From a virus (taxonomy: Duplodnaviria > Heunggongvirae > Uroviricota > Caudoviricetes): a stretch of 64,000 nt of DNA. Every line of letters starts with the position of its first letter. Position 1 is the first letter of the stretch. Below the pieces are notes generated by a model. The model was not told the origin of the DNA and did not search any database. It saw only the letters and a list, made by a program, of their open reading frames with translations. This document shows positions 36,539-45,907 of this stretch, in pieces. The stretch is from the IMG/VR virus record IMGVR_UViG_3300037313_000650; one strand, 5' to 3'. A program made the translations under genes and the position numbers.

Positions 36539-36943
36539 TTAACGAGATGCAGATGGTAATTCGTATGTGTATTTACCAGAATCTGCATTCACCTTGATAG
36601 TATTTTTAAACATTTCCATACCTTTTTCTCCAGTATAGAGGTTATATAACGGCATATCTGTTTTCTTTTTCATGCTCCATAAATCAGTTATAGCACTATC
36701 CAAATCTACTCTCTTGTATAGATCATAGGAATGTTTGTATGATGTATTCAGTTGTTGCCATAATCCTAAGCTTCTTAATTTAACCTTTCCAGAAGTTTCC
36801 AGTTCCCTGATTACTTCTTGGCAGAGAATATAAGGTTGTCCTGAATAGTCACGTAAGTCCTTAAGTTCTTCCTTGTATGTTCCCCACTTTCCTTTCAGAA
36901 GTAGGTAGGTAGCCATTGATTTTTTCCAATCTGTAGTTTTCAT
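36539..36943 (-). CDS. paralogue A of a tandem three-gene family (134 aa)
   Basis: N-terminal domain WKKSMATYLLLKGKWGTYKEELKDLRDYSGQPYILCQEVIRELETSGKVKL is shared with the two adjacent genes. Confidence 0.55.
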   Translation of the reverse strand: MKTTDWKKSMATYLLLKGKWGTYKEELKDLRDYSGQPYILCQEVIRELETSGKVKLRSLGLWQQLNTSYKHSYDLYKRVDLDSAITDLWSMKKKTDMPLYNLYTGEKGMEMFKNTIKVNADSGKYTYELPSASR

Positions 36944-37245
36944 ACATCGTATACTTTCAATTTTTCTATCTCCATTTTTATTCTATATTCATCCATTTTC
37001 TTTTGATGTTCAGCCATTTCTATGTTGTATATCTGCTGCTGAAGTTTTATTTTATCAAATACAGATTCAGTAGATTTTAATTTTATCTTCTTTTCAGCTT
37101 CTAGACCACGTAAGATTATTCTACATATAGATTCAGTCATTCCAGAAAAATCTATCAAATCATCAACTTCTTCCTGAAGAGTACCATAAGTCCCTTTAAG
37201 AAGAATATAAGTAATCATTGATTTTATTTTATCTTGTTCTGTCAT
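36940..37245 (-). CDS. paralogue B of the tandem family (101 aa)
   Basis: KSMITYILLKGTYGTLQEEVDDLIDFSGMTESICRIILRGLEAEKKIKL. Overlaps its neighbours by 4 nt. Confidence 0.55.
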   Translation of the reverse strand: MTEQDKIKSMITYILLKGTYGTLQEEVDDLIDFSGMTESICRIILRGLEAEKKIKLKSTESVFDKIKLQQQIYNIEMAEHQKKMDEYRIKMEIEKLKVYDV

Positions 37246-37508
37246 ATAGAAGGTTTTGGTACAAGCTTAAAAGTTCTTGTTGGGTCTTTTACCCATACAT
37301 TCATATTGCTGAAAGGGTTGAATAATTTTATCTTCTTATTTTCATCACACCATTTTATTACCTCTGCACAAAAATTAACATCCTGCCCTGAATAGTCTAC
37401 TAAATCATGAAGTTCTGTTGCAAACATTCCCCATGTTCCTTTTAACATTAGGTAAGTGATCATTGATTTTCTCCATTGTTCATCTGTCATAAAATTCTCT
37501 TCCTGCAT
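37242..37508 (-). CDS. paralogue C of the tandem family (88 aa)
   Basis: WRKSMITYLMLKGTWGMFATELHDLVDYSGQDVNFCAEVIKWCDENKKIKL. First gene after the divergent control region. Confidence 0.55.
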   Translation of the reverse strand: MQEENFMTDEQWRKSMITYLMLKGTWGMFATELHDLVDYSGQDVNFCAEVIKWCDENKKIKLFNPFSNMNVWVKDPTRTFKLVPKPSI

Positions 37509-37608
37509 AGAACAAATTTAAAAAACTTCTACAACTTTTCATACTTAAAAAAGTTAAACAAAATAATATATAGCGCAAATCCGCTACCAGTAAGGATTTC
37601 ATGGGAAG

Positions 37609-37710
37609 TTTTTTGATATACATCAAATGTTTTTTGATATACATCATAAAACTAGCTGTATACATCAAATTTCTAAAAAAATATTTAACATACTTTGATG
37701 TATTTGTCAT
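37609..37710. promoter_or_regulatory. cluster of 10 to 14-bp palindromic repeats (core ATACATCAAA) in the divergent intergenic region. Candidate operator, iterons or origin.
   Basis: TTTTTTGATATACATCA repeated directly at 37609 and 37630 (21-bp period). TGTATACATCAAAT at 37657..37670. An inverted copy TTTGATGTAT at 37695..37704. All lie in an AT-rich 257-bp region between divergently transcribed genes. Confidence 0.5.
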
Positions 37711-37765
37711 AGTTTTATAGTATATTTGCTTAGAATTTATTACAATTTTATACAAAAACGTTTAT

Positions 37766-38191
37766 ATGTCACAGATAGTATACTCACACCAAAAGATAAA
37801 TCATGAAACCGGAGAAGTTACAGAATCCAAGTTTGTAAAAAAAGAAGTAAAGAGTACGGATGAGTTCATATTCCTATATATAAAACATATAGGAACTCTA
37901 GCAAAACTTCCTTCTTGTGAACTTAAAACTTTAATATGCTTATCTTCTCATATTAATTGGGAAACAGGTGATATAGGTTTATCTCCAAATATTGTAGATG
38001 AAGTACAGAATTGCTCAGAGTTGACTATCTCTTCTATACGTTCAGCTATATCAAGGCTTGCAAAGAAGAATTTTCTGCAAAAGGTGAAGAATAATTGGTA
38101 TAGAATAAATCCAGATATCTTCTGGAGAGGTTCTGAAATTAAGAGACAAAAAATGTTTGAATTAACTTATCAGTGGGAAATAAAAGAGTAG
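37766..38191 (+). CDS. winged helix-turn-helix DNA-binding protein (141 aa), regulator or replication-initiator-like
   Basis: The only plus-strand gene in the window. The C-terminal LTISSIRSAISRLAKKNFLQKV is a classic wHTH recognition helix as in MarR/Rep-type proteins. It is adjacent to the repeat cluster. Confidence 0.55.
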   Translation: MSQIVYSHQKINHETGEVTESKFVKKEVKSTDEFIFLYIKHIGTLAKLPSCELKTLICLSSHINWETGDIGLSPNIVDEVQNCSELTISSIRSAISRLAKKNFLQKVKNNWYRINPDIFWRGSEIKRQKMFELTYQWEIKE

Positions 38192-38255
38192 GAATTTTAA
38201 ATTCCTATAATTAAAAATTTTTTATTTTAATATAGGAATTTAAAATATTTATGTG

Positions 38256-38340
38256 TGGAAGTGGTTGGAATCGAACCAACACCTGTACAGGGCTGCGATT
38301 TTACAGATCGTCCTACCTAACCAATAGGTAGCTCACTTCC
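38256..38340 (-). tRNA. tRNA-Tyr(GTA), class II
   Basis: Acceptor GGAAGTG/CACTTCC. Anticodon loop cTGTAaa. Long variable arm. T-arm GTTGG-TTCGATT-CCAAC. Confidence 0.7.
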
Positions 38341-38416
38341 ATGATAAACTAAATTTTACGTAATAAACTTACCTAGTTTATTATATAAAAACAAGGTTAC
38401 TATATTGATAATCAAG

Positions 38417-38499
38417 TGGAGAGTACAGGATTCGAACCTGTGTCACCAAAGATGACCTTCCATTAGCAACGGAGTACATTACCCCTCTGTCAACTCTCC
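38417..38499 (-). tRNA. tRNA-Ser(GCT), class II
   Basis: Acceptor GGAGAGT/ACTCTCC. Anticodon loop tTGCTaa. Variable arm GTCA-TCTTTGG-TGAC. T-arm ACAGG-TTCGAAT-CCTGT. Confidence 0.65.
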
Positions 38500-38578
38500 A
38501 TTTAGATATCGGAAAATTTCCGATAATGTTGGATATATTATACAAATTCACTCATTTTGTTGACAATATCCAGCATTG

Positions 38579-38663
38579 CGGTGGGTAGAGGAATCGAACC
38601 CCTGTCAGTGTTACCTGCCTTTAATTTTCAAGATTACGCCATTACCAACTCTGGCAACCCACC
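38579..38663 (-). tRNA. tRNA-Ser(TGA), class II
   Basis: Acceptor GGTGGGT/ACCCACC. Anticodon loop cTTGAaa, with one mismatch in the anticodon stem. Long variable arm. T-loop TTCGATT. Confidence 0.55.
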
Positions 38664-38738
38664 AAATTATATCCAGCCAAAACTACCCCAAAAAGTAGAG
38701 TTTTGGCCGGATATAATGAATCTATATCTCGCCAAAAG

Positions 38739-38819
38739 TGCTCCTGAAAGGATTCGAACCTTCACGCCGAAGCAAGGGTTTTTAAGACCCTCATGTACTA
38801 CCAATTTCATCACAGGAGC
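38739..38819 (-). tRNA. tRNA-Leu(TAA), class II
   Basis: Acceptor GCTCCTG/CAGGAGC. Anticodon stem AGGGT/ACCCT with loop cTTAAaa. Long variable arm. T-loop TTCGAAT. Confidence 0.65.
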
Positions 38820-38824
38820 ATTTG

Positions 38825-38899
38825 TACACCTAGTCAGATTCGAACTGACACTACCATGTTCCTAAGACATGTGACTCCTTCCGATTGGTCTATAGGTGC
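38825..38899 (-). tRNA. atypical tRNA with anticodon TAG (Leu-like) but a short variable loop and a 12-nt D-loop
   Basis: Acceptor GCACCTA/TAGGTGT (G1:U72). Anticodon stem CATGT/ACATG with loop cTTAGga. T-arm GTCAG-TTCGAAT-CTGAC. No long extra arm. Confidence 0.45.
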
Positions 38900-38900
38900 A

Positions 38901-38936
38901 TAAAATAAAAATCCCGACCTTTTTGAGATCGGGATT
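38901..38936 (-). terminator. hairpin plus U-run (intrinsic-terminator-like) directly abutting the 5' end of the downstream tRNA
   Basis: Minus strand reads AATCCCGATCTCAAAAAGGTCGGGATT followed by TTTATTTTA. Stem is 8 bp. tRNA 5' end is at 38899. Confidence 0.5.
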
Positions 38937-39222
38937 CTTGTAATAGTAAAAGTAAAATCTAAAACATACTATTCCCAATCTCTTGTAAATTCAAGAGTGA
39001 TAAACTGGAATAATATGATAGTAATTTTTTCATTTTTAAATAAGGTAAATAGTTTGTTTGAGCCTGTCTTCTGGAACACTCCTTACTTTTCTGACATTTG
39101 CTCTCAGTATAGTCTAGTCGGTACTTCCTAACCTTTCTCAGCCTTTCAGAGGCTTACTACTTCGGTAGGTTTCAGAATTTTAAGACCTCATACAATTTTA
39201 TAGTGTTACTCTCAAAAGAACT

Positions 39223-39266
39223 ATTACAATACAATAATACAAAATATTATTTAATCTGCCAAATTT
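39223..39266 (-). promoter_or_regulatory. conserved 44-bp promoter-like motif, copy 1 (Bacteroidetes-type -33 TTTG / -7 TAnnTTTG-like)
   Basis: Minus strand reads AAATTTGGCAGATTAAATAATATTTTGTATTATTGTATTGTAAT. Same motif and spacing as the copies at 42991 and 44211. Overlaps the stop codon of the upstream gene. Confidence 0.5.
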
Positions 39267-39546
39267 ATTTTCTTTCTTGTACAGGGTGTCTCATTAATAT
39301 AGATATTGCTATAGCTGCAATTATTCTTACTTCCTCTAATGCTTTTTCCGAATCTTTAGAAAGAATATATTCTTTAGCCTGTATTGCACGATTGGTTAAA
39401 CTATTAACCCTCTCATCTAAGGGTGTTGGTGGTACATGTGGACCTTTGCCACTTCCCCAATGTTTTTCCTGCCATTTGATTTCATTTTTTAGAATTCTCA
39501 AAGATTCTAAAGATTCAATAGCATCAATAAATTTTTTGTTATCCAT
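39265..39546 (-). CDS. hypothetical protein (93 aa)
   Basis: ORF with protein-like composition. The overlapping plus-strand ORF 39203..39562 looks spurious. Confidence 0.5.
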   Translation of the reverse strand: MDNKKFIDAIESLESLRILKNEIKWQEKHWGSGKGPHVPPTPLDERVNSLTNRAIQAKEYILSKDSEKALEEVRIIAAIAISILMRHPVQERK

Positions 39547-39558
39547 AAATATTAGATT

Positions 39559-40554
39559 TTAAAAGAAGCCTTTTATACCCTTCATATCCTTATTATCCTC
39601 ATCCCTTTGTTTAAAATATTCTTGAATCTGTCTTTTCAATTCTGGACTTCTATCTGTAAGCTGATATATCCCATTCCAATCTTTCTTTAAATCCAGAGAA
39701 GGTGTGAATTTATTTTCAACAAGGATTTGCCATCTATCTTTATATCGTCTATTAACCTTAGCTCCATGAAAGTTATGAATCAATCCACCTTTCATATAAC
39801 CTATATTCTTTTTGATATATTTTAAAGCTCTATCTTGCCATATCTTAAGCATCTCTTTATATTCTTGCTGCACTTTACCATTAACTGATTTCTGCCAATC
39901 ACCAATTAAACATCTTGCCATATGATTATCTCCAGAACCAAGAATAGCCCAATCAATTAACCCACCTAAATCAGAAATAGCTTTCCTTGTAGCTGCCCAT
40001 GCATATCCAGTATGCCACGAATTAGGTCTTCTCCATTTACCGTTGTAACAGTTATTTTCAGCAACACCATTAATATAATCGTGTACAAATCCCGTACTCA
40101 TTGAAAATGGTACATAGTCTGAATCAACATCTATAGCCACTTCAAACATCTGTATCACATCATAGTGCTGTAGCTGATGAATACATTCTCCTACCCAATC
40201 AGGTCTTATAAACTGTATATCTGCATCTATCCAAGCAACATATTCCCAATCAGCAGGAAGCCTCTGAATAGCCAAATTAATCATGTTTTCCTTTATCCAG
40301 ATTTCATGATTGGTCTGTACTTTAATTACTGTATGTTTAGGAGAGGGATGTTCTTCTATTACATGACTTCTTTCACCAAAAGAACATTCAATTGTAACAA
40401 GGTGGGCTTCATCATTTGAAAGTACGTAATGTTCAAAATCTTCATACAACTTCCATCTTTGTCTATATCTTTGAGGATTGAATACGGGAGCAATTACATA
40501 TAGGGGTGTATTTACTTTATCATATCTATGAAAGTTGGATATTTGATTTTTCAT
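39559..40554 (-). CDS. putative GT-A-fold glycosyltransferase-like protein (331 aa) with a DXD motif
   Basis: VAWIDADIQFIRPDW (hydrophobic run, then DxD) and a conserved upstream acidic/His region. Embedded in the tRNA array. Fold assignment is tentative. Confidence 0.4.
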   Translation of the reverse strand: MKNQISNFHRYDKVNTPLYVIAPVFNPQRYRQRWKLYEDFEHYVLSNDEAHLVTIECSFGERSHVIEEHPSPKHTVIKVQTNHEIWIKENMINLAIQRLPADWEYVAWIDADIQFIRPDWVGECIHQLQHYDVIQMFEVAIDVDSDYVPFSMSTGFVHDYINGVAENNCYNGKWRRPNSWHTGYAWAATRKAISDLGGLIDWAILGSGDNHMARCLIGDWQKSVNGKVQQEYKEMLKIWQDRALKYIKKNIGYMKGGLIHNFHGAKVNRRYKDRWQILVENKFTPSLDLKKDWNGIYQLTDRSPELKRQIQEYFKQRDEDNKDMKGIKGFF

Positions 40555-40597
40555 ACATATTAAATATACAAAAAATATTTCAAAATACCAAAAATAG

Positions 40598-40669
40598 TGG
40601 AGGATACGGAATTCGAATCCGTACTGCTAGAATGCAAATCTAGTGTGCAGCCAATAACACTTATCCCCC
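40598..40669 (-). tRNA. tRNA-Ala(TGC)
   Basis: Acceptor GGGGGAT/ATCCTCC with the G3:U70 Ala identity pair. Anticodon stem CTAGA/TCTAG with loop tTTGCat. T-arm ACGGA-TTCGAAT-TCCGT. Confidence 0.7.
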
Positions 40670-40676
40670 ACTATAT

Positions 40677-40967
40677 CTACTTCCTTCTATATTTAGGGTC
40701 ACTACCCCAGAATCTATAGTCACAAATATCATATTGATTTGTGATAGTTCTATAGTGTGGAATTACTGGTTCCATAGGAAGATGCCAGTAATCTTCATAT
40801 CTATTTCTTTTGTAGAAATAGAATTCCATTTCATTCCATTCAGGAAACATTGTTTTACGATATTCAGTAAGGATTTGCCTTACCCTTCTTCTCATCTTCC
40901 TAGCATGAATCTCTTTCATACCTGAAGTGTGGTCTTTACACAAAGGAGTTCTGTAACTTCTGCTCAT
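40677..40967 (-). CDS. small basic hypothetical protein (96 aa)
   Basis: ORF between tRNA-Ala and tRNA-Ile. Arg/Lys-rich. Confidence 0.4.
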   Translation of the reverse strand: MSRSYRTPLCKDHTSGMKEIHARKMRRRVRQILTEYRKTMFPEWNEMEFYFYKRNRYEDYWHLPMEPVIPHYRTITNQYDICDYRFWGSDPKYRRK

Positions 40968-41025
40968 AGTAACTAAATTTTAGTTACAAGGCATCAAATA
41001 CTTTTTTCATGATTAAATATTTAAG

Positions 41026-41097
41026 TGCTCAAGCCAAGATTCGAACTTGGAACCTTCATCGTATCAGGATGACCGTCCACCATTGACATACATGAGC
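41026..41097 (-). tRNA. tRNA-Ile(GAT)
   Basis: Acceptor GCTCATG/CTTGAGC (one mismatch). Anticodon stem TCATC/GATGA with loop cTGATac. T-arm CCAAG-TTCGAAT-CTTGG. Confidence 0.65.
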
Positions 41098-41106
41098 ATT
41101 ATAAAG

Positions 41107-41181
41107 TGGACTCTATAGGGATCGAACCTATGTATCTCTTGATTATGAGTCAAGTGCCTTCACCAACTTGGCTAAGAGTCC
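41107..41181 (-). tRNA. tRNA-Met(CAT), elongator type or Ile2
   Basis: Acceptor GGACTCT/AGAGTCC. Anticodon stem CTTGA/TCAAG with loop cTCATaa. T-arm ATAGG-TTCGATC-CCTAT. Confidence 0.65.
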
Positions 41182-41275
41182 ATTTGTACTATACTCCTCC
41201 TTCAGTGGTGACTGAATCACAACTTAGCCTCAGTTGCTTCGTAGATAGATTCTACAGAGGGTATAGTACTATATG

Positions 41276-41348
41276 CAGAGAGTGGGGGATTCGAACCCCA
41301 GACCTTTTGCGTGACAAGCAAATATGCAGCCGTTACACCACACCCTCC
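41276..41348 (-). tRNA. tRNA-Asp(GTC)
   Basis: Anticodon stem TTTGC/GCAAA with loop tTGTCac. T-loop TTCGAAT. Acceptor GGAGGGT/ACTCTCT with two G:U pairs. Confidence 0.55.
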
Positions 41349-41354
41349 ATATTG

Positions 41355-41426
41355 TATTCCTGAACGGAGTCGAACCGTCATCTTTGGCGTGAAAAGCCAA
41401 CGAACTAACCATTATTCTACAGGAAC
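41355..41426 (-). tRNA. tRNA-Glu(TTC)
   Basis: Acceptor GTTCCTG/CAGGAAT. D-stem GAAT/GTTC. Anticodon stem TTGGC/GCCAA with loop tTTTCac. T-arm GACGG-TTCGACT-CCGTT. Confidence 0.65.
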
Positions 41427-41489
41427 ATGAAACATCAGACCGTATGCCCCTAAGCACCGCTAAGGCTTTCTAATTCCACATCTGATGTG

Positions 41490-41565
41490 TGCAGCATGTC
41501 GGACTCGAACCGACTAATTCCCCCTGTTTGGAAGACAGGTATGCAACCAGTTACACCTATGCTGC
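41490..41565 (-). tRNA. tRNA-Gly(TCC)
   Basis: Acceptor GCAGCAT/ATGCTGC. Anticodon stem CCTGT/ACAGG with loop cTTCCaa. T-arm GTCGG-TTCGAGT-CCGAC. Confidence 0.65.
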
Positions 41566-41688
41566 AATTTGCTAGGTCAACCACTTTCCCTAGCTTGGTG
41601 ACTTGAGGGTTTTTGATTAATTCCGCAGAGTTGTCACTTTACCCTAAACTCCGAATGGCGGTTAACGTGATTACCGAAACGTAGAACT

Positions 41689-42171
41689 TTAAGCAGCTTC
41701 TTTCAAAGCTTCTTCTATATTAAACATATTGCTTCTCTTTCTGCATTCATGGTTAGCTGCTCTTGTAGCTATCATATCTTCAGATTTGAATCTTGCATTA
41801 TGATAACCTTTAAAAGAACTAACCAGATTAGAAGAAAGTGTTTTCTTTAGATCATTATAGTCAAACTCCAGAATAGGACTTACAGGAAGTTCATCTGTAA
41901 GTAATCTAGCAGCTTCCAGAGTTCTCATACCCTCATCATAAAGTCTCATATACTCTACCTTCACTCTATCTACTTCTTCCTTAAATACAATATAATGTGC
42001 TCCTCTAGTGCCATATCTGTAACAGATTGTAGTGGCGTATATTGTATTAGCTTCAGTTTGAGAATCTGTTCCAATATGTATTTTTAGGTCAGGATATAGA
42101 TTCAATTGTTCTAACGTATGTTTTATGATATTTACGTATGAACCATCCACTTTTTTAAAATACCTTTCCAT
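41689..42171 (-). CDS. hypothetical protein (160 aa) embedded in the tRNA array. Possible RNase H-like or RuvC-like fold.
   Basis: ORF. KIHIGTDSQTEANTIYATTIC loosely resembles the first strand-Asp motif of RuvC/YqgF-like nucleases. Weak. Confidence 0.4.
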   Translation of the reverse strand: MERYFKKVDGSYVNIIKHTLEQLNLYPDLKIHIGTDSQTEANTIYATTICYRYGTRGAHYIVFKEEVDRVKVEYMRLYDEGMRTLEAARLLTDELPVSPILEFDYNDLKKTLSSNLVSSFKGYHNARFKSEDMIATRAANHECRKRSNMFNIEEALKEAA

Positions 42172-42188
42172 TGGACAACAATTTAAAG

Positions 42189-42260
42189 TTTCGGAGGCAG
42201 GATTTGCACCTGCGACTAAGAGCTTATGAGACTCTTCTGCTACTACTGCATCACTCCGAA
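42189..42260 (-). tRNA. atypical tRNA with anticodon CAT (Met/Ile2-like) and a non-canonical T-loop TGCAAAT
   Basis: Acceptor TTCGGAG/CTCCGAA. Anticodon stem AGAGT/GCTCT with loop cTCATaa. T-stem GCAGG/CCTGC. T54-G55-C56 replaces the usual T-psi-C. Confidence 0.45.
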
Positions 42261-42268
42261 ATGTTTAG

Positions 42269-42339
42269 CTGCCCTGCTGAGAATTGAACTCAGACCTCAA
42301 TGTTAACAGCATTTTGCTCGACCTTCGAGCTACAGGGCA
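42269..42339 (-). tRNA. tRNA-Asn(GTT)
   Basis: Acceptor TGCCCTG/CAGGGCA. D-stem GCTC/GAGC. Anticodon loop cTGTTaa. T-arm CTGAG-TTCAATT-CTCAG. Confidence 0.6.
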
Positions 42340-42343
42340 TTAG

Positions 42344-42415
42344 TACACCGTACTAGGGTCGAACTAGTAACCTACTGCTTAGAAGGCAGTTGCTCTTCCA
42401 TTGAGCTAACGGTGC
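42344..42415 (-). tRNA. tRNA-Arg(TCT)
   Basis: Acceptor GCACCGT/ACGGTGT (G1:U72). D-stem GCTC/GAGC. Anticodon stem ACTGC/GCAGT with loop cTTCTaa. T-arm ACTAG-TTCGACC-CTAGT. Confidence 0.65.
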
Positions 42416-42472
42416 AAAGAGTGCAGTTGACTTCTAGCTGTCATGTGGTTACTGCACGTTTTATCCACTTTG

Positions 42473-42545
42473 TAGTTCCTATAGGATTCGAACCTATGAC
42501 TATCTCCTTGTAATGGAGCTACGCTACCAACTGCGCCAAGGAACT
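42473..42545 (-). tRNA. tRNA-Val(TAC)
   Basis: Acceptor AGTTCCT/AGGAACT. D-stem GCGC/GCGT. Anticodon loop aTTACaa. T-arm ATAGG-TTCGAAT-CCTAT. Confidence 0.65.
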
Positions 42546-42720
42546 ATTTTATTTCCCAAGTATATTTTTTATCTGCATCTATAATCATGATGTGATCTTT
42601 GGGATAATATTTTCGTTGAGTCATATTAAACCTTCTCCAAGATTTAAGCTCTAATTTTCTTAATTTTGATAATCTGATTATCATATATCAAATATAAGAA
42701 CTATTTTAATTATTTCAAAG

Positions 42721-42791
42721 TGCTCCCTAATGGAATCGAACCAGTATCCCTAAATTAAAAGTTTAGTATTCTACCATTGAACTAAGAGAGC
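42721..42791 (-). tRNA. tRNA-Lys(TTT)
   Basis: Acceptor GCTCTCT/AGGGAGC (one G:U). Anticodon stem CTAAA/TTTAG with loop cTTTTaa. T-loop TTCGATT. Confidence 0.65.
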
Positions 42792-42796
42792 TATGA

Positions 42797-42835
42797 GTAA
42801 AAAGAAAAACCCCAAAGCTCTTTTCAGCCTTGGGG
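42797..42835 (-). terminator. hairpin plus U-run upstream of tRNA-Lys
   Basis: Minus strand reads CCCCAAGGCTGAAAAGAGCTTTGGGG followed by TTTTTCTTTTTAC. It ends 6 nt before the tRNA-Lys 5' end. Confidence 0.5.
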
Positions 42836-42861
42836 TCTTCTTTTATCTTTAGATGTTTCTG

Positions 42862-42969
42862 TTATTTTCCACCACAACCGCAACCACCACCAGATAATAG
42901 AAGCCCCAAGGCAATCTTCTCGTTGCCTCTCGCTTCAATATTATCCACTATCATATATAGGTATGACAT
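42862..42969 (-). CDS. possible 35-aa Gly/Cys-tailed peptide (MSYLYMIVDNIEARGNEKIALGLLLSGGGCGCGGK) in the leader transcript
   Basis: ATG 16 nt downstream of the predicted start of promoter copy 2. Stop is 25 nt before the hairpin. Too short to be in the ORF track. Could be non-coding. Confidence 0.15.
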   Translation of the reverse strand: MSYLYMIVDNIEARGNEKIALGLLLSGGGCGCGGK

Positions 42970-42990
42970 TTTGTGCGGTGTTAAATTTTA

Positions 42991-43034
42991 ATTACAATAC
43001 AATATTACAAAAAATATTCCAGATTACCAAATTT
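42991..43034 (-). promoter_or_regulatory. conserved 44-bp promoter-like motif, copy 2
   Basis: Minus strand reads AAATTTGGTAATCTGGAATATTTTTTGTAATATTGTATTGTAAT. Identical end-to-end spacing to copies 1 and 3. Confidence 0.5.
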
Positions 43035-43050
43035 CTATAGAATTATTTTT

Positions 43051-43221
43051 TTACCAAGTAGTAATTGACTGTCTATAAGACCTACTCATAACTTTAAACC
43101 TGTTAGAATTTTTAAATCTCCTTACTGTAGTTTCAGAAAGACCTAATTTTTCTGCTAATCTTTCATTACCCCATTTAATATAACCGGGATTGTTGATTAA
43201 AAAGTTTTCAATTTTTTTCAT
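43051..43221 (-). CDS. small helix-turn-helix protein (56 aa, MKKIENFLINNPGYIKWGNERLAEKLGLSETTVRRFKNSNRFKV...)
   Basis: ATG at 43221 and stop at 43051. LAEKLGLSETTVRRF is a canonical HTH segment. Below the ORF-track size cutoff. Confidence 0.4.
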   Translation of the reverse strand: MKKIENFLINNPGYIKWGNERLAEKLGLSETTVRRFKNSNRFKVMSRSYRQSITTW

Positions 43222-43307
43222 ATTTAAATATATTTAGTACACTAAAATACACAAAGTATTTGAAAGTATATTAAATATATTGTTAAAAGAACACCTAAAA
43301 GGAGTCG

Positions 43308-43381
43308 AACCCCATAGAGGACTCGAACCTCTACATCTCCTGATTCGTATTCAGGTGCATTTCCAGTTTTGCTAATGGGGC
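43308..43381 (-). tRNA. tRNA-Arg(ACG)
   Basis: Acceptor GCCCCAT/ATGGGGT (G1:U72). Anticodon stem CCTGA/TCAGG with loop aTACGaa. T-arm AGAGG-TTCGAGT-CCTCT. Confidence 0.6.
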
Positions 43382-43404
43382 ATTATGTCTAATTCTATGA
43401 CAAT

Positions 43405-43476
43405 TTACACGAGGGAGTACGATTCCCTAACCTCCAGAGCCGTAATCTGGTGTTCTGACCATTGAACTACAGGTGC
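43405..43476 (-). pseudogene. degenerate tRNA-like element, a duplicate with anticodon ACG, lacking a pairable acceptor stem
   Basis: Perfect D-arm (TA-GTTC-AATGGTCA-GAAC) and anticodon arm (CCAGA-tTACGgc-TCTGG). The T-loop is AATCGTA/ATCGTAC rather than TTCGA. The 3' end cannot pair with 5' GCACCTG. Confidence 0.35.
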
Positions 43477-43479
43477 TTA

Positions 43480-43553
43480 TGGGGTGGAAGTGGGTATCGA
43501 ACCCTAGCCTTCTCCTTCACAGGGAGCTATTCTACCATTAAACTACATCCACC
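43480..43553 (-). tRNA. tRNA-His(GTG) with encoded G-1 and a 3' CCA
   Basis: 5' G-GTGGATG pairs with CTTCCAC-C (G-1:C73). Anticodon stem GCTCC/GGAGA with loop cTGTGaa. T-loop TTCGATA. Terminal CCA present in the DNA. Confidence 0.55.
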
Positions 43554-43560
43554 ATTTTAA

Positions 43561-43633
43561 GTTCCCAACCAAAGATTCGAACTTTGACAATGAGTGCCAA
43601 AAACTCATGTGCTACCGTTACACCAATTGGGAA
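43561..43633 (-). tRNA. tRNA-Gln(TTG)
   Basis: Acceptor TTCCCAA/TTGGGAA. Anticodon stem TGAGT/ACTCA with loop tTTTGgc. T-arm AAAG-TTCGAAT-CTTT. Confidence 0.6.
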
Positions 43634-43637
43634 TATG

Positions 43638-43709
43638 CACGTATGGAGAGATTCGAACTCCCACCAACGGTTTTGGAGACCGTCATACTACCATTATACT
43701 ACACACGTA
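43638..43709 (-). tRNA. tRNA-Trp(CCA)
   Basis: Acceptor ACGTGTG/CATACGT (one G:U). Anticodon stem ACGGT/ACCGT with loop cTCCAaa. T-arm GGGAG-TTCGAAT-CTCTC. Confidence 0.6.
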
Positions 43710-43749
43710 TATGAGCCGTTTTATAGTCTTTCCTGCTCAGGACTTTAAG

Positions 43750-43822
43750 TGGTAATGAGCAGAATCGAACTGCTGACACCCAGATTTTCAGTCTGGTGCT
43801 CTACCAACTGAGCTACATTACC
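43750..43822 (-). tRNA. tRNA-Phe(GAA)
   Basis: Acceptor GGTAATG/CATTACC. D-arm GCTC-AGTTGGTA-GAGC. Anticodon stem CCAGA/TCTGG with loop cTGAAaa. T-arm AGCAG-TTCGATT-CTGCT. Confidence 0.75.
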
Positions 43823-43826
43823 ATAG

Positions 43827-43898
43827 AGGCCAAACAGGTGATCGAAACCTGAACCCATGTTTACAAGACACGTATTTTGCCACTTAAACTATTCGGCC
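43827..43898 (-). tRNA. tRNA-Thr(TGT)
   Basis: Acceptor GGCCGAA/TTTGGCC (one G:U). Anticodon stem CGTGT/ACATG with loop cTTGTaa. T-arm CAGGT-TTCGATC-ACCTG. Confidence 0.6.
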
Positions 43899-43904
43899 TT
43901 ATAG

Positions 43905-43980
43905 AGGTCAAGAAGGGAATCAAACCCTTGTTTCTAGGTTTTGCAGACCTATGCCCATATCAACATTGACGACTTGACCA
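43905..43980 (-). tRNA. tRNA-Cys(GCA)
   Basis: Acceptor GGTCAAG/CTTGACC. Anticodon stem TAGGT/ACCTA with loop cTGCAaa. T-arm AAGGG-TTTGATT-CCCTT. Enlarged D-region. Confidence 0.55.
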
Positions 43981-43984
43981 TATG

Positions 43985-44060
43985 TATAGGTGGTGAGATT
44001 CGAACTCACGACCCCAAGCTCCCAAAGCTTGTGCGCTAACCGGACTACGCTACACCTATA
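43985..44060 (-). tRNA. tRNA-Pro(TGG)
   Basis: Acceptor ATAGGTG/CACCTAT. D-stem GCGT/GCGC. Anticodon stem CAAGC/GCTTG with loop tTTGGga. T-arm GTGAG-TTCGAAT-CTCAC. Confidence 0.6.
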
Positions 44061-44093
44061 TAAAATAAAAATCCCCACATTTCTGTGAGGATT
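44061..44093 (-). terminator. hairpin plus U-run immediately abutting the tRNA-Pro 5' end
   Basis: Minus strand reads AATCCTCACAGAAATGTGGGGATT followed by TTTTATTTTA. The next nucleotide is tRNA-Pro position 1. Confidence 0.5.
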
Positions 44094-44210
44094 CTGTATC
44101 GTTGAAAAGCTGTAAACTATTTCATTATCGGACATACAATACATGAACCCTCACATGTGCCAAAGGGACACTGCGTAAACGGTTGCCATGTATGTGTACG
44201 ATTCATTTTC

Positions 44211-44254
44211 ATTACAATACAATAATACTAAATTTATTTGAAACTACCAAATTT
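44211..44254 (-). promoter_or_regulatory. conserved 44-bp promoter-like motif, copy 3
   Basis: Minus strand reads AAATTTGGTAGTTTCAAATAAATTTAGTATTATTGTATTGTAAT. TTTG, then about 20 nt, then TATTATTG resembles the Bacteroidetes sigma-A -33/-7 consensus. Confidence 0.5.
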
Positions 44255-44690
44255 AATTTAATAAAAACATTACAGTAGTATTCCACATTGCATGTACAGC
44301 TACAGAAGACCAATAAGAATACTTATTCTGAATATATACCCAACAAAGTACCATACCCAATACACCTTGCATAAATAGTGAAAATATACCACCATCATGA
44401 GCAAATCCAAATTCAATAGAGCTAAATATAGCTGCTACCATAAGTAATTCCCCACCTGCATTAAACTGTTTATCTAAATATTTACCTAATGTAAGTGGTA
44501 ATTTTCTATAGTATAATTCTTCCCATAAAGGAGCTATTATACATGTCATAGATATTTCTAATATAGATTTATCAGTATCATTATCTCCATATACAGGTTG
44601 ACCAACTAATTTAGCCATAAACCACGCAATGAAGAATGACCATAATACAAATGCTACATAACCAATTGTGATGTTTTTAATTTTATTCAT
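44253..44690 (-). CDS. CPBP-family (CAAX protease / Abi, PF02517-like) intramembrane metalloprotease homologue (145 aa)
   Basis: All three family motifs are present in order: PLWEELYYR (EExxxR), FGFAH (FxxxH), HAMWN (HxxxN). Hydrophobic segments consistent with about 4 TM helices. Confidence 0.65.
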   Translation of the reverse strand: MNKIKNITIGYVAFVLWSFFIAWFMAKLVGQPVYGDNDTDKSILEISMTCIIAPLWEELYYRKLPLTLGKYLDKQFNAGGELLMVAAIFSSIEFGFAHDGGIFSLFMQGVLGMVLCWVYIQNKYSYWSSVAVHAMWNTTVMFLLN

Positions 44691-44708
44691 GGTGGAAGAG
44701 TTTTATAA

Positions 44709-44740
44709 TTAGAAATAAAAAGGGCTGTAGAAACAGCCCT
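44709..44740 (-). terminator. intrinsic terminator (GTAGAAAC-loop hairpin family)
   Basis: Minus strand reads AGGGCTGTTTCTACAGCCCT followed by TTTTATTTCT, directly after the stop of the 367-aa fibre-like gene. Confidence 0.55.
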
Positions 44741-44778
44741 ATAACATATCAGTAGCAAACCAACAAAGCCTACTGTGT

Positions 44779-45882
44779 TTAAAAGTTTGGATGTATAACA
44801 ACTCCAGTGAAGTTTACTACTACTGTTTTAGAAGTAGAGGAAGTAAATGCAGACTGAAGTTTAAGTTTTAATTTCTCAGCAGCCCTACGAACAATATATC
44901 CGTATTGCTGAACTGTTTGATCAGCAGATGCTTGCGGTGTATCTATATAGTTAACACCTTTCAAATCTTCTGAACCAGCTAATTCTGTAAGAGTAATGCA
45001 TGTTGTAGGTAATGAACCTAGTGTAATTTCAAACTCTTTATTTGAAGATTGATAGTTACCAAAACTTACTGTATATGTAGCACTACCTTTAAATTCTACA
45101 GAACCATCGAATCTATATCTATATTTAGGTTGACCAGATACAAACACTACATTAGCATTTCCTGTAGCTATAAGGGTTAAATCTTTCCAAGTACCATCAA
45201 AGCACGACCTTGCTATCTGGATAGAAGGATTGGTAGAAAGTATATATGGGTCTAAAGTAGTACCTGTACCGCTTTTATTTATACCAGTACCAGCAACAAT
45301 TTTAGTTTCAGAACCATCAGGAGCAGTATATGAAGTTTTTAACTTACCATCATCACCTAATGTAAGCTGATTACCATCATCATTTGAAATGAGAGAAGAA
45401 GGAACCACATCAAATTTCACCTTCTCATCAGCACCGGGATTTACTATAATTTTAGATAAGAAAGTACCATTGGTTAACTTTTCTGTTAGATAACCATTAG
45501 TAGTATCAGCAGATGTAGCTTTAACTTTTACATCTACAGGAACACCACCAACAGTAGAATCTATCTTAAGCTTCTTATCACAACCTGTACCTACAATACT
45601 CAATGAGATGTTTAATCCGGCCTCAACTTTATCAAGTAAGGATGCAGGACATGTATCACTATCATCGGCTTTAACCTTACCTTCATTATCTTTTAAATCC
45701 TGTACAGCAATATTTACTTTGTTTAATACAGTATCACCCTCATCATTATTTAATACACCTAATGCAGTAAGTTCAGTTCCTGTATAAGTAGTACACTTAA
45801 ACGTATTAGGATTTATACAACCACAATTGTCGTAGTTGCTTTCTGCACAAGGGTCAACATTATTACAAGTATCGCAAGACAT
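44779..45882 (-). CDS. tail fibre or receptor-binding-like protein (367 aa) with a Cys-rich N-terminus
   Basis: MSCDTCNNVDPCAESNYDNCGCINPNTFKC, then a Thr/Ser/Gly/Val-rich beta-rich composition. Position at the distal end of the structural module. Confidence 0.45.
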   Translation of the reverse strand: MSCDTCNNVDPCAESNYDNCGCINPNTFKCTTYTGTELTALGVLNNDEGDTVLNKVNIAVQDLKDNEGKVKADDSDTCPASLLDKVEAGLNISLSIVGTGCDKKLKIDSTVGGVPVDVKVKATSADTTNGYLTEKLTNGTFLSKIIVNPGADEKVKFDVVPSSLISNDDGNQLTLGDDGKLKTSYTAPDGSETKIVAGTGINKSGTGTTLDPYILSTNPSIQIARSCFDGTWKDLTLIATGNANVVFVSGQPKYRYRFDGSVEFKGSATYTVSFGNYQSSNKEFEITLGSLPTTCITLTELAGSEDLKGVNYIDTPQASADQTVQQYGYIVRRAAEKLKLKLQSAFTSSTSKTVVVNFTGVVIHPNF

Positions 45883-45907
45883 ATTTTATTATTGTTTTAT
45901 TAATTAA

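Follow-up and report, generated by a model that had tools for sequence, protein, structure and literature searches.

Amino acid biosynthesis operons of bacteria are controlled by leader-peptide attenuators, among them trpL, hisL, leuL, thrL, pheL and the leader of ilvGMEDA. The phage tRNA locus that we describe here has in common with the trp, his and ilv attenuators a 5'-proximal short ORF, regulatory codons in segment 1 and the pairings 1:2, 2:3 and 3:4, and with biosynthesis-operon attenuators generally a GC-rich hairpin followed by a U-run just before the first regulated gene. Its closest counterparts are the multivalent ilvGMEDA and thr leaders, in which several amino acids are sensed by a single leader, as they would be here. 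Unlike the attenuators of biosynthesis operons, the phage leaders have tRNA genes, not enzymes, as their targets; and unlike the classical leaders with their one or few repeated codons, the phage sensor samples every tRNA of its block, with up to ten amino acids and with codon families distinguished. Furthermore, unlike bacterial leaders, they are virus-encoded, and a genome has three of them, one adapted to each block. The phage leaders resemble the known ones neither in sequence nor in Rfam searches.

In the E. coli pheST operon the Phe-codon-rich leader peptide pheM controls expression of Phe-tRNA synthetase in response to tRNA-Phe charging. The likeness to the phage locus is that attenuation serves homeostasis of the translation machinery; the difference is that pheST is a cellular gene with a synthetase target and a single sensed amino acid, whereas the phage device targets tRNAs. 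In T-box leaders, too, tRNA decides whether a terminator or an antiterminator forms ahead of tRNA-charging genes, but they bind tRNA directly, read one specifier codon and carry the conserved T-box sequence, whereas the phage read-out would need a ribosome. As for phages, T4 and T5 both have arrays in which the tRNAs are interspersed with further RNA genes or short ORFs – in T5, annotated stable RNAs and many small ORFs – but their stable RNAs are non-coding products, not switches, and none of the T5 tRNAs follows a hairpin and U-run with a codon-matched short ORF upstream. The crAss-like Bacteroides phage crAss001 resembles our locus in carrying about 25 tRNAs in one array with a Bacteroidota-type promoter (TTTG ... 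TAnnTTTG) in front. In crAss001, however, the promoter abuts the first tRNA. We found neither a leader ORF nor a terminator hairpin before any of its tRNA blocks, and the device is therefore clade-specific and not general to crAss-like phages.

All of the features described here are located on the minus strand of a 64,000-nt stretch of DNA from a crAss-like phage (the whole of which we refer to as the window). Each of the three leaders is preceded by a promoter-like repeat of family D1: copy 3 at 44205..44254 (motif match 44220-44251), copy 2 at 42985..43034 (43000-43031) and copy 1 at 39217..39266 (39232-39263). Throughout the 64 kb, the 13-mer ATTACAATACAAT is found only in these three strong copies, once in each. 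A scan for the motif TTTGG-N17-21-TANNWTTR yielded five matches in the window, four of which are D1 copies. The fourth, weaker copy (40546..40595) lies directly before a 331-aa ORF (39559-40554) with homologues in other phages and has no attenuator; here, too, the ATG of the long ORF follows just after the -7 box. Copy 3, the promoter-like element that would drive the leader of the Pro block, combines a -33 TTTG with the -7-like TATTATTG, resembling, with one mismatch, the Bacteroidota housekeeping-sigma type TTTG/TAnnTTTG, whose two motifs stand some 19-21 nt from each other. The D1 copies of the window have TTTG with either TATTATTG or TAATATTG, again with one mismatch each, and so look Bacteroidota-like. 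Related phages have a perfect TATATTTG at the equivalent position, and the same promoter motif is found in the phage Lbo-JY46, yet that phage is recorded on a cyanobacterium. Scanning with the sigma-70 consensus returned fewer promoter-like sites than in shuffled sequences and was for that reason uninformative.

ARAGORN predicts 24 tRNAs, and Rfam adds a 25th tRNA-like gene at 43406..43476. They form three blocks. The Pro block (43307..44059; ARAGORN, Rfam) comprises Pro(tgg), Cys(gca), Thr(tgt), Phe(gaa), Trp(cca), Gln(ttg), His(gtg), the tRNA-like gene and Arg(acg). The Lys block (40597..42791) comprises Lys(ttt), Val(tac), Arg(tct), Asn(gtt), Met(cat), Gly(tcc), Glu(ttc), Asp(gtc), a second CAU tRNA (Met or possibly Ile2), Ile(gat) and Ala(tgc), interspersed with ORFs at 42544-42684, 41689-42171 (YkuK/RNase-H-like) and 40677-40967. 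The second CAU tRNA (41106-41181) is weakly similar to the tRNA-Ile(tat) of relatives; what points to a tRNA-Ile2 is its position and a conserved ATA codon in the sensor. Finally, the Leu block (38255..38899) comprises Leu(tag), Leu(taa), Ser(tga), Ser(gct) and Tyr(gta).

Each block-initial tRNA is closely preceded by a putative intrinsic terminator, that is, segments 3 and 4 followed by a U-run. Before the Pro block (44060..44100) the hairpin at 44095..44068 has 12 pairs (-16.1 kcal/mol) and the element ends at position -1 of tRNA-Pro; before the Lys block (42797..42844) the hairpin at 42840..42805 has 15 pairs (-25.6 kcal/mol) and the element lies about 6 nt from tRNA-Lys, which starts at 42791; before the Leu block (38900..38939) the hairpin at 38939..38907 has 14 pairs (-18.4 kcal/mol) and the element abuts tRNA-Leu(tag). 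A consensus scan of 37000-46000 detected 9 terminator-like sites as compared to 3.5 +/- 1.9 in shuffles, and the three leader hairpins are the three longest of the nine. As judged across the 24 ARAGORN tRNAs, strong GC-rich hairpins (-16 to -26 kcal/mol) with a T-rich run are found only before the three block-initial ones. A weaker stem before tRNA-Glu (-11.1 kcal/mol) passed a looser detection threshold, and we treated it as spurious. If a phage polymerase uses the D1 promoters, termination at a hairpin with a U-run would not be guaranteed.

The recurrent order of promoter, leader, hairpin and tRNA had been proposed in an earlier note on this DNA, and it holds: three strong D1 copies and the three longest hairpins, each before a block-initial tRNA. 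We likewise share the note's view of the hairpins as resembling intrinsic terminators that are possibly read through. Its count of three promoter copies is right for the strong copies but overlooked the weaker fourth, and of the two places at which it had a U-run contiguous with a tRNA, the one at 38899 is correct, whereas tRNA-Pro starts at 44059 (ARAGORN and Rfam) and not at 44060. Where the note saw leaders without a substantial ORF, we found that all three carry a conserved short ORF, one of which, the 35-codon ORF in the copy-2 leader, the note had itself listed and we confirmed at 42969..42862.

Leader ORF 3 (44117..44212), with its ATG 7 nt past the -7 box, encodes MKMNRTHTWQPFTQCPFGTCEGSCIVCPIMK (31 codons). 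Its codons 5-17, CGT ACA CAT ACA TGG CAA CCG TTT ACG CAG TGT CCC TTT (44162..44200), constitute segment 1, the sensor run; they read RTHTWQPFTQCPF and precede the Pro-Cys-Thr-Phe-Trp-Gln-His-Arg(acg) block, with at least one codon for each of the eight tRNA species of that block and none for other tRNAs. Leader ORF 2 (42862..42969) encodes MSYLYMIVDNIEARGNEKIALGLLLSGGGCGCGGK (35 codons), in which codons 6-20 (42910..42954) spell MIVDNIEARGNEKIA ahead of the Lys-Val-Arg(tct)-Asn-Met-Gly-Glu-Asp-Met-Ile-Ala block; the Arg codon of this run is AGA, as read by tRNA-Arg(tct). Leader ORF 1 (38959..39033) encodes MKKLLSYYSSLSLLNLQEIGNSMF (24 codons), and its codons 4-14, TTA CTA TCA TAT TAT TCC AGT TTA TCA CTC TTG (38992..39024), give LLSYYSSLSLL before the Leu-Leu-Ser-Ser-Tyr block, covering all five tRNAs: Leu taa, Leu tag, Ser tga, Ser gct and Tyr gta. 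The runs are unbroken over 13, 15 and 11 codons in leaders 3, 2 and 1, and include 8/8, 10/10 and 3/3 of the amino acid types of the respective blocks; the probability of the run length alone arising by chance is about 3e-7, 3.5e-3 and about 1e-7, respectively. The only amino acid type common to two blocks is Arg, and there the codon family separates the two Arg tRNAs. On either side the runs are flanked by non-block residues (N-terminal MK.., MSYLY and a GGGCGCGGK tail). A GGCGCGG motif recurs in several small ORFs, and the Cys-rich leader ORF 3 lies just downstream of a CPBP-family gene (CPBP/Rce1-like protease) at 44253-44690.

Upstream of its ORF, leader 1 has a 5' segment of about 185 nt (39034..39216) without an ORF and without significant structure: folding compared with shuffled sequence gave z = +0.7, i.e. 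no excess. The segment is little conserved, with only a short TACCGAC-containing stretch in common with the relatives L121 and L006. An Rfam cmscan of 37000-46000 at E <= 1 returned tRNAs and chance hits; it placed no family in the leaders, and specifically none of the Trp_leader, His_leader, Leu_leader or Thr_leader type. This bears on whether the leaders could be T-box-like riboswitches that bind uncharged tRNA directly, with no need for translation. Alternative terminator and antiterminator structures upstream of translation-related genes are a T-box hallmark too; however, neither a T-box nor any other Rfam match was found in the leaders at that threshold, and 11 to 15 different codons in one frame, with an ATG and a stop at conserved distances, are not a single specifier codon. 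We regard a T-box-like riboswitch as scarcely credible.

In the 3' part of each leader ORF we found a segment 2 that can pair with either the codon run or the 5' arm of the terminator. In leader 3 this is GUGAGGGUUCAUGUAUUGUAUG (44135..44156, inside the ORF), and its duplex with the terminator arm, the putative antiterminator, has a predicted energy of -22.6 kcal/mol (z = -7.2 versus shuffles). In leader 2, UGCCUUGGGGCUUCUAUUAUCUGG (42890..42913) is complementary to the terminator 5' arm AGAUAAAAGAAGACCCCAAGGC (-26.4 kcal/mol, z = -6.5 versus shuffles), and in leader 1, GAGAUUGGGAAUAGUAUG (38965..38985) can pair with the sensor run or with the arm UCCCGAUCU, with a complementarity to the latter of z = -4.5. 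In constrained folds of all three window leaders, the minimum-energy structure without a ribosome is 1:2 plus 3:4; with a ribosome placed on the sensor, and only the part of the nascent transcript before the terminator loop allowed to fold, 2:3 forms instead. For leader 1 the three modelled ribosome states give 1:2, 2:3 or 3:4.

To establish whether this anatomy is conserved we collected related loci. Among 50,697 phage records, megablast matched the region over no more than 56 nt of a tRNA; the locus has no close deposited relative. The 367-aa and 160-aa proteins, used as single queries for related loci, found nothing; the 331-aa ORF led to loci that are non-syntenic and without tRNA clusters; and the exonuclease gene retrieved 80 loci, of which only L006 is syntenic. 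Relatives were gathered by anchoring on a 487-aa ORF and an alignment of the YkuK-like protein, yielding 55 unique leaders from about 25 related genomes. The order of promoter, leader, hairpin and tRNA is kept in these genomes and in two cultured phages, and so the conservation that the earlier note had proposed to look for is there. Leader ORF 3 has homologues in 16 relatives, with the same residues in permuted order; leader ORFs 2 and 1 have 19 and 20 unique homologues, respectively. Across the 55 unique homologues the median length of the ORF is 29 aa, and its stop codon lies a median of 60 nt upstream of the tRNA (range 50-88). In the reading frame of the ORF the longest stretch of block amino acids averages 8.85 residues, versus 2.4 and 2.2 in the other two frames (p ~1e-9).

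The composition of the sensor is kept across the relatives, and the order of its residues is permuted. When a tRNA is present in a block, its amino acid is present in the sensor in 324 of 341 cases (pooled odds ratio 35, p = 5e-88). The correspondence extends to codon families: Arg is encoded by CGN in 13/14 Pro-type and by AGR in 18/18 Lys-type sensors (Fisher p = 4e-8), a split that fits Arg(acg) in the Pro-type block and Arg(tct) in the Lys-type block; the phage genes of the window have 63 CGN versus 508 AGR codons. The relatives L096 and L114 have their tRNA-Cys in the Lys block, and in both it is the Lys-type sensor that includes Cys, the Pro-type one having none, whereas outside these two genomes Cys is present in 14/14 Pro-type sensors, with tRNA-Cys in the same block. 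Similarly, L089 and L128 have a Lys block without tRNA-Arg(tct) and a sensor without Arg. When the whole regions preceding segment 2 are considered, the share of residues from the block set is only 62%, in part due to truncated loci and to N-terminal over-extension of ORF calls. At the sequence level, then, the codon content of a leader follows the tRNA content of its block as tRNAs move between blocks.

Two cultured phages have the same device. In Cellulophaga phage phi17:2, which infects Cellulophaga baltica and has phi4:1 as a near relative, the tRNAs are grouped as {P,E,Q,H,L,R}, {A,K,I,G,M,D,T,V,R} and {Y,S,N,W,F,C}. The three leaders, QRLHLQELEQP, TKTGITVIDKTKGARA and NYCTYNNSNWSFSY, match this partition, which is unlike that of the window, and the codon run pointed to a 'pseudo' tRNA being tRNA-Cys. 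One of these leader ORFs is gp077, a hypothetical protein. In Leptolyngbya phage Lbo-JY46 the leader codons likewise fit the tRNA blocks of that phage.

The pairings were examined in the same 55 leaders. Complementarity between segment 2 and the terminator arm exceeds that of shuffled sequences in 47/55 (mean z = -3.6), and pairing 1:2 does so in 35/55. In a mix-and-match comparison, 36/55 arms had their own upstream sequence among the best-ranking tenth (p = 4e-23), and within a genome a leader's own arm outdid the remaining arms in 45/46 comparisons (p = 2.5e-12). Compensatory variants of the segment 2/terminator-arm pairing were found in relatives, including for leader 2, and in the leader 1 type of L006 the corresponding pairing is GAAUGGG/CCCAUUC. 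The 2:3 signal is weak or absent in 8/55 leaders; for leader B of phi17:2, p = 0.455. In the MAFFT alignment of leader 2 type, pairings 1:2 and 3:4 co-vary (0.257 versus 0.185 in shuffles, reached by 0/500, with slid controls lower), but column-wise covariation counts for 2:3 in the MAFFT alignments are not above controls. The slid controls were equally good, from which we assume that errors of alignment register account for the missing excess. The support for 2:3 consequently comes from the alignment-free tests: complementarity against shuffles, mix-and-match and the own-arm comparison.

Could the ORFs instead be ordinary small-protein genes, Cys-rich or bacteriocin-like, with terminators of their own, so that the tRNAs depend on leaky read-through or on promoters elsewhere and their match to the codons is incidental? 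The Cys-richness of leader 3 and its place next to the CPBP-family gene, the recurrent GGCGCGG motif and the annotation of gp077 as a hypothetical protein would all suit such genes. However, the peptides are not conserved as proteins: composition alone is kept, and it shifts exactly with moves of tRNAs, just as the Arg codon family switches together with the Arg tRNA. Nor would one expect of a plain gene with a terminator that the 3' part of the ORF be complementary to its own arm, as the within-genome comparisons show it to be. We consider ordinary small-protein genes highly improbable.

The same data bear on the suggestion of the earlier note that the leaders are structured non-coding small RNAs reminiscent of those of T4. 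Such RNAs, as in T4 or T5, would be co-expressed with the tRNAs; termination or RNase P cleavage would free them, and the 3' hairpin would protect them. A hairpin with a U-run would indeed make a stable 3' end, T5 has its annotated stable RNAs among the tRNAs, and terminated attenuator transcripts act as sRNAs elsewhere, for example rnTrpL. What is conserved in our leaders, however, is a codon-matched frame and several pairings that exclude one another: it is the reading frame and its codons that are kept, not one RNA fold; residues are permuted with the composition kept; the conserved structures are alternatives and do not add up to a single stable fold; the leaders match no Rfam family; and the 5' part of leader 1 shows no excess structure. 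This makes a non-coding function very unlikely. Attenuation would nevertheless probably yield short, terminated leader RNAs as a side product.

Taking the evidence together, we propose that the three leaders are ribosome-mediated (leader-peptide) transcription attenuators, one per phage tRNA block, an explanation that we hold to be probable. Sequence analysis shows the anatomy of a leader-peptide attenuator: a short ORF at the 5' end, a run of cognate codons, a terminator before the first tRNA, and the 2:3 and 1:2 pairings. The exception is the classical target, biosynthesis enzymes or aminoacyl-tRNA synthetases: the genes downstream are tRNAs. The proposal implies that the ORFs are translated, that the hairpins terminate the polymerase and that stalling shifts the ratio of termination to read-through, all of which we infer.

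On this model, transcription would begin at the D1 promoter repeat, and ribosomes would start on the short ORF very close to the 5' end of the RNA. In its core, segment 1, they would meet one or more codons for each of the tRNA species encoded downstream. If all sensor codons are decoded fast, the ribosome would advance, and either 1:2 would re-pair or the ribosome would cover segment 2; the 3:4 terminator would then form and RNA polymerase would stop just before the first tRNA. If, on the other hand, any cognate tRNA is scarce or uncharged, the ribosome would stall on segment 1, leaving segment 2 free to pair with the terminator 5' arm (the 2:3 antiterminator); the polymerase would enter the tRNA block, and RNase P would excise the tRNAs from the read-through transcript. 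The outcome would be negative feedback, block by block, with tRNAs made on demand when the decoding of their own codons is limiting. Given a codon-matched ORF and a switchable terminator, the phage thus appears to make its tRNAs only when ribosomes are short of them.

The same anatomy might serve another signal: general translation capacity, amino acid starvation, or a timer during the takeover of host translation. In classical attenuators the cue is tRNA charging, and a lack of amino acids would therefore stall the ribosome as well; such stalling would not be relieved by more tRNA, a point that counts against a firm assignment of the physiological signal. However, a general sensor needs neither the exact codon set of its block nor a change of that set as tRNAs move. 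We take a different signal to be unlikely, and tentatively infer that the physiological signal is tRNA supply and not amino acid starvation.

A more far-reaching reading, which we put forward tentatively and at somewhat less than even confidence, is that the leaders are programmable multi-tRNA sensors: a codon bar-code would monitor, for each block separately, whether the infected cell still decodes every codon, and would switch on the matching tRNAs, making this the first known feedback of cognate-codon translation on tRNA transcription and a sensor for counter-defence. Decoding might fail through the mismatch in codon usage between an AT-rich phage and its host, through phage-induced loss of host tRNA or through anticodon-nuclease defences of the host, and in evolution the bar-code would be rewritten whenever a tRNA gene changes block. 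In the openly available full-text literature on phage tRNA, leader peptides and attenuation, we found no prior description of such control of tRNAs, and a review that we consulted does not mention any.

If the proposal is true, leader-peptide attenuation gains a new class of targets, the RNA genes of the translation apparatus, and with it a new sensor design: one codon per tRNA, up to ten amino acids and discrimination of codon families. The codon run predicts the downstream tRNAs, including unannotated or degenerate ones, and the modules could become compact reporters of tRNA availability for synthetic biology. The device is present in the cultured phages phi17:2 and Lbo-JY46 and is hence open to experiment. 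Why phages bring tRNAs of their own, and how these are put to use, is an old question; phage-encoded tRNAs have been proposed to compensate for codon usage, to replace degraded host tRNAs or to escape anticodon nucleases; if our proposal is true, the supply of phage tRNA would be regulated on demand, indicating a shortage in decoding as the selective pressure.

ARAGORN places 24 tRNA genes at 38255–44059 of the window. A ~50-nt promoter-like repeat occurs in three strong copies on the − strand (39217–39266, 42985–43034 and 44205–44254; the core 13-mer occurs exactly three times in the 64 kb) and one weaker copy (40546–40595, −). It reads TTTGG, 19–20 nt, then TA(T/A)TATTG and, judged by sequence, resembles the −33/−7 promoter of Bacteroidota; four of the five matches to a motif of this type in the window are repeat copies. 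The order of promoter, leader, hairpin and tRNA described in the earlier note holds at all three strong copies, each with a leader downstream whose end is formed by one of the region's three longest terminator-like hairpins (15, 14 and 12 pairs, with folds of −25.6, −18.4 and −16.1 kcal/mol). The region contains 9 terminator-like sites as compared to 3.5 ± 1.9 in shuffles. The U-run abuts tRNA-Leu(tag) at 38899 and tRNA-Pro (0 nt in both cases), as the same note had it, save that tRNA-Pro starts at 44059 and not 44060; the gap to tRNA-Lys (42791) is ~6 nt. None of the other tRNAs among the 24 is preceded by so strong a hairpin. A weaker stem before tRNA-Glu (−11.1 kcal/mol), which passed a looser detection threshold, was treated as spurious.

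The three hairpins divide the tRNAs into three blocks. While the leaders had been described as lacking a substantial ORF, with only a 35-codon one noted in the second, every one of them contains a short ORF, and its core – the ‘sensor’ – is an uninterrupted series of codons that correspond exactly to the tRNAs of the following block. We name leaders after the first tRNA of that block. The ORF of the Pro-type leader 3 (44212..44117) has the sensor RTHTWQPFTQCPF ahead of Pro, Cys, Thr, Phe, Trp, Gln, His and Arg(acg); that of the Lys-type leader 2 (42969..42862) has MIVDNIEARGNEKIA ahead of Lys, Val, Arg(tct), Asn, Met, Gly, Glu, Asp, Met, Ile and Ala; and that of the Leu-type leader 1 (39033..38959) has LLSYYSSLSLL ahead of Leu(tag), Leu(taa), Ser(tga), Ser(gct) and Tyr. 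The sensors cover 8/8, 10/10 and 3/3 of the amino-acid types of their blocks, respectively, and, given the amino-acid usage of the window, runs of such length have chance probabilities of ~3 × 10⁻⁷, 3.5 × 10⁻³ and 1 × 10⁻⁷. The match extends to codons: arginine, the sole amino-acid type common to two blocks, is told apart by codon family, with CGT ahead of Arg(acg) and AGA ahead of Arg(tct), and sensor 1 draws on a single codon family for each tRNA (TTR, CTN, TCN, AGY and TAY).

Several features of the leaders lie outside the sensor. The five residues ahead of the Lys-type run are mostly Tyr, Leu, Ser or Asn (MSYLY, MYNLN, MYSSY, MYLIN; 42955–42969 in the window), and Tyr, Leu and Ser belong to the Leu/Ser/Tyr block and not to the Lys block. 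In leader 1, promoter and ORF are separated by 185 additional nt (39034–39216, −), devoid of an ORF and of excess structure; the equivalent place in relative L006 (368–520) holds a 50-aa basic ORF (MAKRESQKVKGCKKCGRSKRKNSG...YFKETNQKVRK), with a homologue ahead of tRNA-Val in L091 (11234–11380), and the segment in the window may be a copy that has decayed. GGCGCGG(K), a Gly/Cys motif, turns up repeatedly as a mobile module. Lys-type leaders carry it as their C-terminal tail in the window (42865–42891), L099, L122 and Leptolyngbya phage Lbo-JY46 (L131:1839–1949); L087 (18709–18771) and L092 (7904–7951) have it ahead of the Pro-type leader, as a mini-ORF in its own right that is preceded by a further promoter copy; and in L086 (17278–17418) the Pro-type leader has it fused to its N-terminus. 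It is also found at L088:16385–16474. The module could be a second Gly/Cys codon sensor, an RNA element rich in G or a genuine micro-peptide. Promoter copy 3 and the Cys-rich leader ORF directly follow a gene for a CPBP/Rce1-like intramembrane protease (44253–44690, −), a neighbourhood that recurs in L130 (6049–6516); this may be coincidence or a link to small Cys/Gly peptides.

The phage itself is large and AT-rich (about 30–37% G+C), with a contig of ~165 kb, nearly all genes on the − strand and a 4737-aa ORF. It is related to the crAss-like phages: its portal protein is 20–27% identical to crAss-like, Cellulophaga and Flavobacterium phage portals, and neighbouring genes in relatives match CrAss_Ring Pfam families. 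As no close relative was found among deposited sequences, we used a 487-aa ORF and a YkuK/RNase-H-like gene inside the cluster as anchors, gathering 47 loci from IMG/VR, JGI, ENA and Logan assemblies (~25 genomes of 125–175 kb). Conservation in related genomes, which the earlier note had named as a check, is borne out: a strong hairpin with a U-run abutting a tRNA occurs at 74 sites in these loci, with 55 unique leader ORFs (median length 29 aa; stop codon a median of 60 nt ahead of the tRNA).

The leader peptides of the relatives are not conserved in sequence; residue order is permuted and composition kept, as in RTHTWQPFTQCPF, RQWHTPTCTQCPF, THTQWFTCTQFP and FQHTRFWFTQPT. A tRNA in the block has its amino acid in the sensor in 324 of 341 cases (pooled odds ratio 35, p = 5 × 10⁻⁸⁸), and the match is frame-specific, the longest run of block amino acids averaging 8.85 in frame as compared to 2.4 and 2.2 in the other frames. 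Arginine is CGN in 13/14 Pro-type and AGR in 18/18 Lys-type sensors (p = 4 × 10⁻⁸); the phage's own genes use 63 CGN vs 508 AGR codons. Sensors also follow tRNAs that move or are lost. In L096/L115 and L114, where tRNA-Cys is located in the Lys block, the Lys-type leaders contain Cys (IVDNMICGNGRAKE; NIAINMICKEV) and the Pro-type sensors do not (FQHTRFWFTQPT), while all 14 Pro-type sensors whose block carries tRNA-Cys contain it; in L089 and L128 the Lys block lacks tRNA-Arg(tct) and the sensor lacks Arg. What we observe directly is a set of sequence features and their co-evolution.

A second CAU-anticodon tRNA (41106–41181, −) occupies the position, directly before tRNA-Ile(gat), where relatives carry tRNA-Ile(tat), and 18/19 Lys-type sensors contain an ATA codon. 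The tRNA would accordingly be a tRNA-Ile2 of the lysidine type and not a tRNA-Met, a choice that sequence similarity does not decide. Rfam (41.2 bits), but not ARAGORN, detects a 25th tRNA-like gene (43406–43476, −) flanked by tRNA-His and tRNA-Arg(acg); it may be a degenerate second tRNA-Arg, its anticodon loop being read as ACG. Strong hairpins are predicted in several inter-tRNA spacers of 60–100 nt (38664–38737, 41182–41274, 41427–41488, 38500–38577 and 38341–38415; the Leu(taa)–Ser(tga) spacer folds at −27.8 kcal/mol); related phages have different sequences at these positions, and the hairpins may serve as signals for processing, derive from decayed tRNAs or belong to small RNAs. ORFs for HNH and other homing endonucleases are inserted between tRNAs in the relatives L086, L087, L088, L093, L094 and L121–L130, and every such ORF is accompanied by a separate AAATTTGG...TATATTTG promoter. 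Some separate attenuator from block (between the Leu-type terminator and tRNA-Leu in L088, ahead of tRNA-Pro in L093 and L094), which would uncouple the switch. The sole sizeable + strand ORF near the cluster, RepL-like (Pfam PF05732; 37766–38191), is convergent with the cluster end, and an AT-rich inverted repeat between them (aaattcctat...ataggaattt, 38190–38250, seen by eye) is possibly a bidirectional terminator. Three tandem diverged ~65-nt repeats, family D2 (36880–37491), mark the 5′ ends of three small paralogous − strand ORFs (36940–37245, 37242–37508 and 37480–37755).

Constrained folding of the three window leaders, with and without a ribosome mask, gives a predicted anatomy of the classical four-segment attenuator. 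With no ribosome, the sensor (segment 1) is predicted to pair with segment 2, located towards the 3′ end of the ORF, and terminator hairpin 3:4 is also formed. When the sensor is masked to mimic a stalled ribosome and the nascent transcript is folded to the terminator loop, segment 2 pairs with the terminator's 5′ arm, yielding a predicted antiterminator 2:3 of −17.6 to −39.9 kcal/mol. With the ribosome at the stop codon, full-length folds predict the terminator for leaders 1 and 2; the fold of leader 3 is ambiguous because its segment 2 lies upstream of the masked region.

Among the 55 leaders, 47 have an ORF segment, always at about ORF nt 50–80, complementary to their own terminator 5′ arm beyond shuffles (mean z = −3.6), and pairing 1:2 is significant in 35. 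In a mix-and-match test an arm's own upstream sequence had a mean fractional rank of 0.118 and fell in the top decile for 36/55 arms (p = 4 × 10⁻²³); the own arm was preferred over other arms of the same genome, a comparison that controls for base composition, in 45/46 cases (p = 2.5 × 10⁻¹²). Compensatory variants include GCCUUGGGG/CCCCAAGGC, GCUCCGGGA/UCCCGGAGC, GCCUCAGGG/CCCUGAGGC and GAUUGGG/CCCGAUC vs GAAUGGG/CCCAUUC. In a MAFFT alignment of Lys-type leaders, covariation of 1:2 plus 3:4 scored 0.257 vs 0.185 in shuffles, 0/500 of which reached the observed value (slid controls, 0.11–0.15). Column-wise counts for 2:3 gave no clear signal, a weakness of the case that we attribute to register errors.

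Cellulophaga phage phi17:2 (portal ~20% identical) carries the same device with a different partition of tRNAs, and its leaders match that partition: QRLHLQELEQP precedes Pro, Glu, Gln, His, Leu, Leu and Arg(acg); TKTGITVIDKTKGARA precedes Ala, Lys, Ile, Gly, Met, Asp, Thr, Val, Arg(tct) and Met; and NYCTYNNSNWSFSY precedes Tyr, Ser, Ser, Asn, Trp, Phe and a ‘pseudo’ tRNA whose anticodon loop, GCA, is that of Cys. Lbo-JY46 (PP438436.1) has the same design, with Cys tRNAs and sensor Cys both in the Lys-type unit. Its recorded host is cyanobacterial, yet the promoters of its tRNA region (TTTG / TAnnTTTG) match the pattern characteristic of Bacteroidota. The motif may be read by a phage-directed polymerase; otherwise the host assignment should be looked at again. 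Some of its tRNAs are seemingly unannotated: Arg(acg) (L131:6639–6709, by Rfam) and, by eye, probable Lys, Ser and Trp. The device is absent from Bacteroides phage crAss001 and coliphage T5. The 91-aa T5 ORF T5.072 (NC_005859; L135 locus 13618–13893), just upstream of the tRNA-Tyr-Glu-Trp-Phe block, contains SWEGWEGEIEWLYFYDVE, rich in exactly W, E, Y and F, which may be accidental or point to another kind of codon-matched device.

In mechanism, the device belongs to the class of the trp/his/leu/thr/ilv leaders and shows every one of their structural features; the target, tRNA genes, differs. Rfam leader families and the T-box model gave no match in the leaders, and the literature searched, with older subscription journals outside its scope, held no earlier report of leader-peptide control of tRNA genes. 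Taken together, this argues for a variant of leader-peptide attenuation not described before, and the two cultured systems, phi17:2 and Lbo-JY46, open it to direct tests. Ribosome-mediated attenuation is the simplest reading of the leaders; we infer that the ORFs are translated, that the hairpins terminate transcription, that stalling alters the outcome and that tRNA supply is the physiological signal. A sensor decoded fast would lead to termination ahead of the tRNAs, while a stall at any sensor codon would free segment 2, prevent the terminator and let the polymerase transcribe the block. Since the product would be the very tRNAs that read the sensor, the circuit would amount to negative feedback on decoding capacity.
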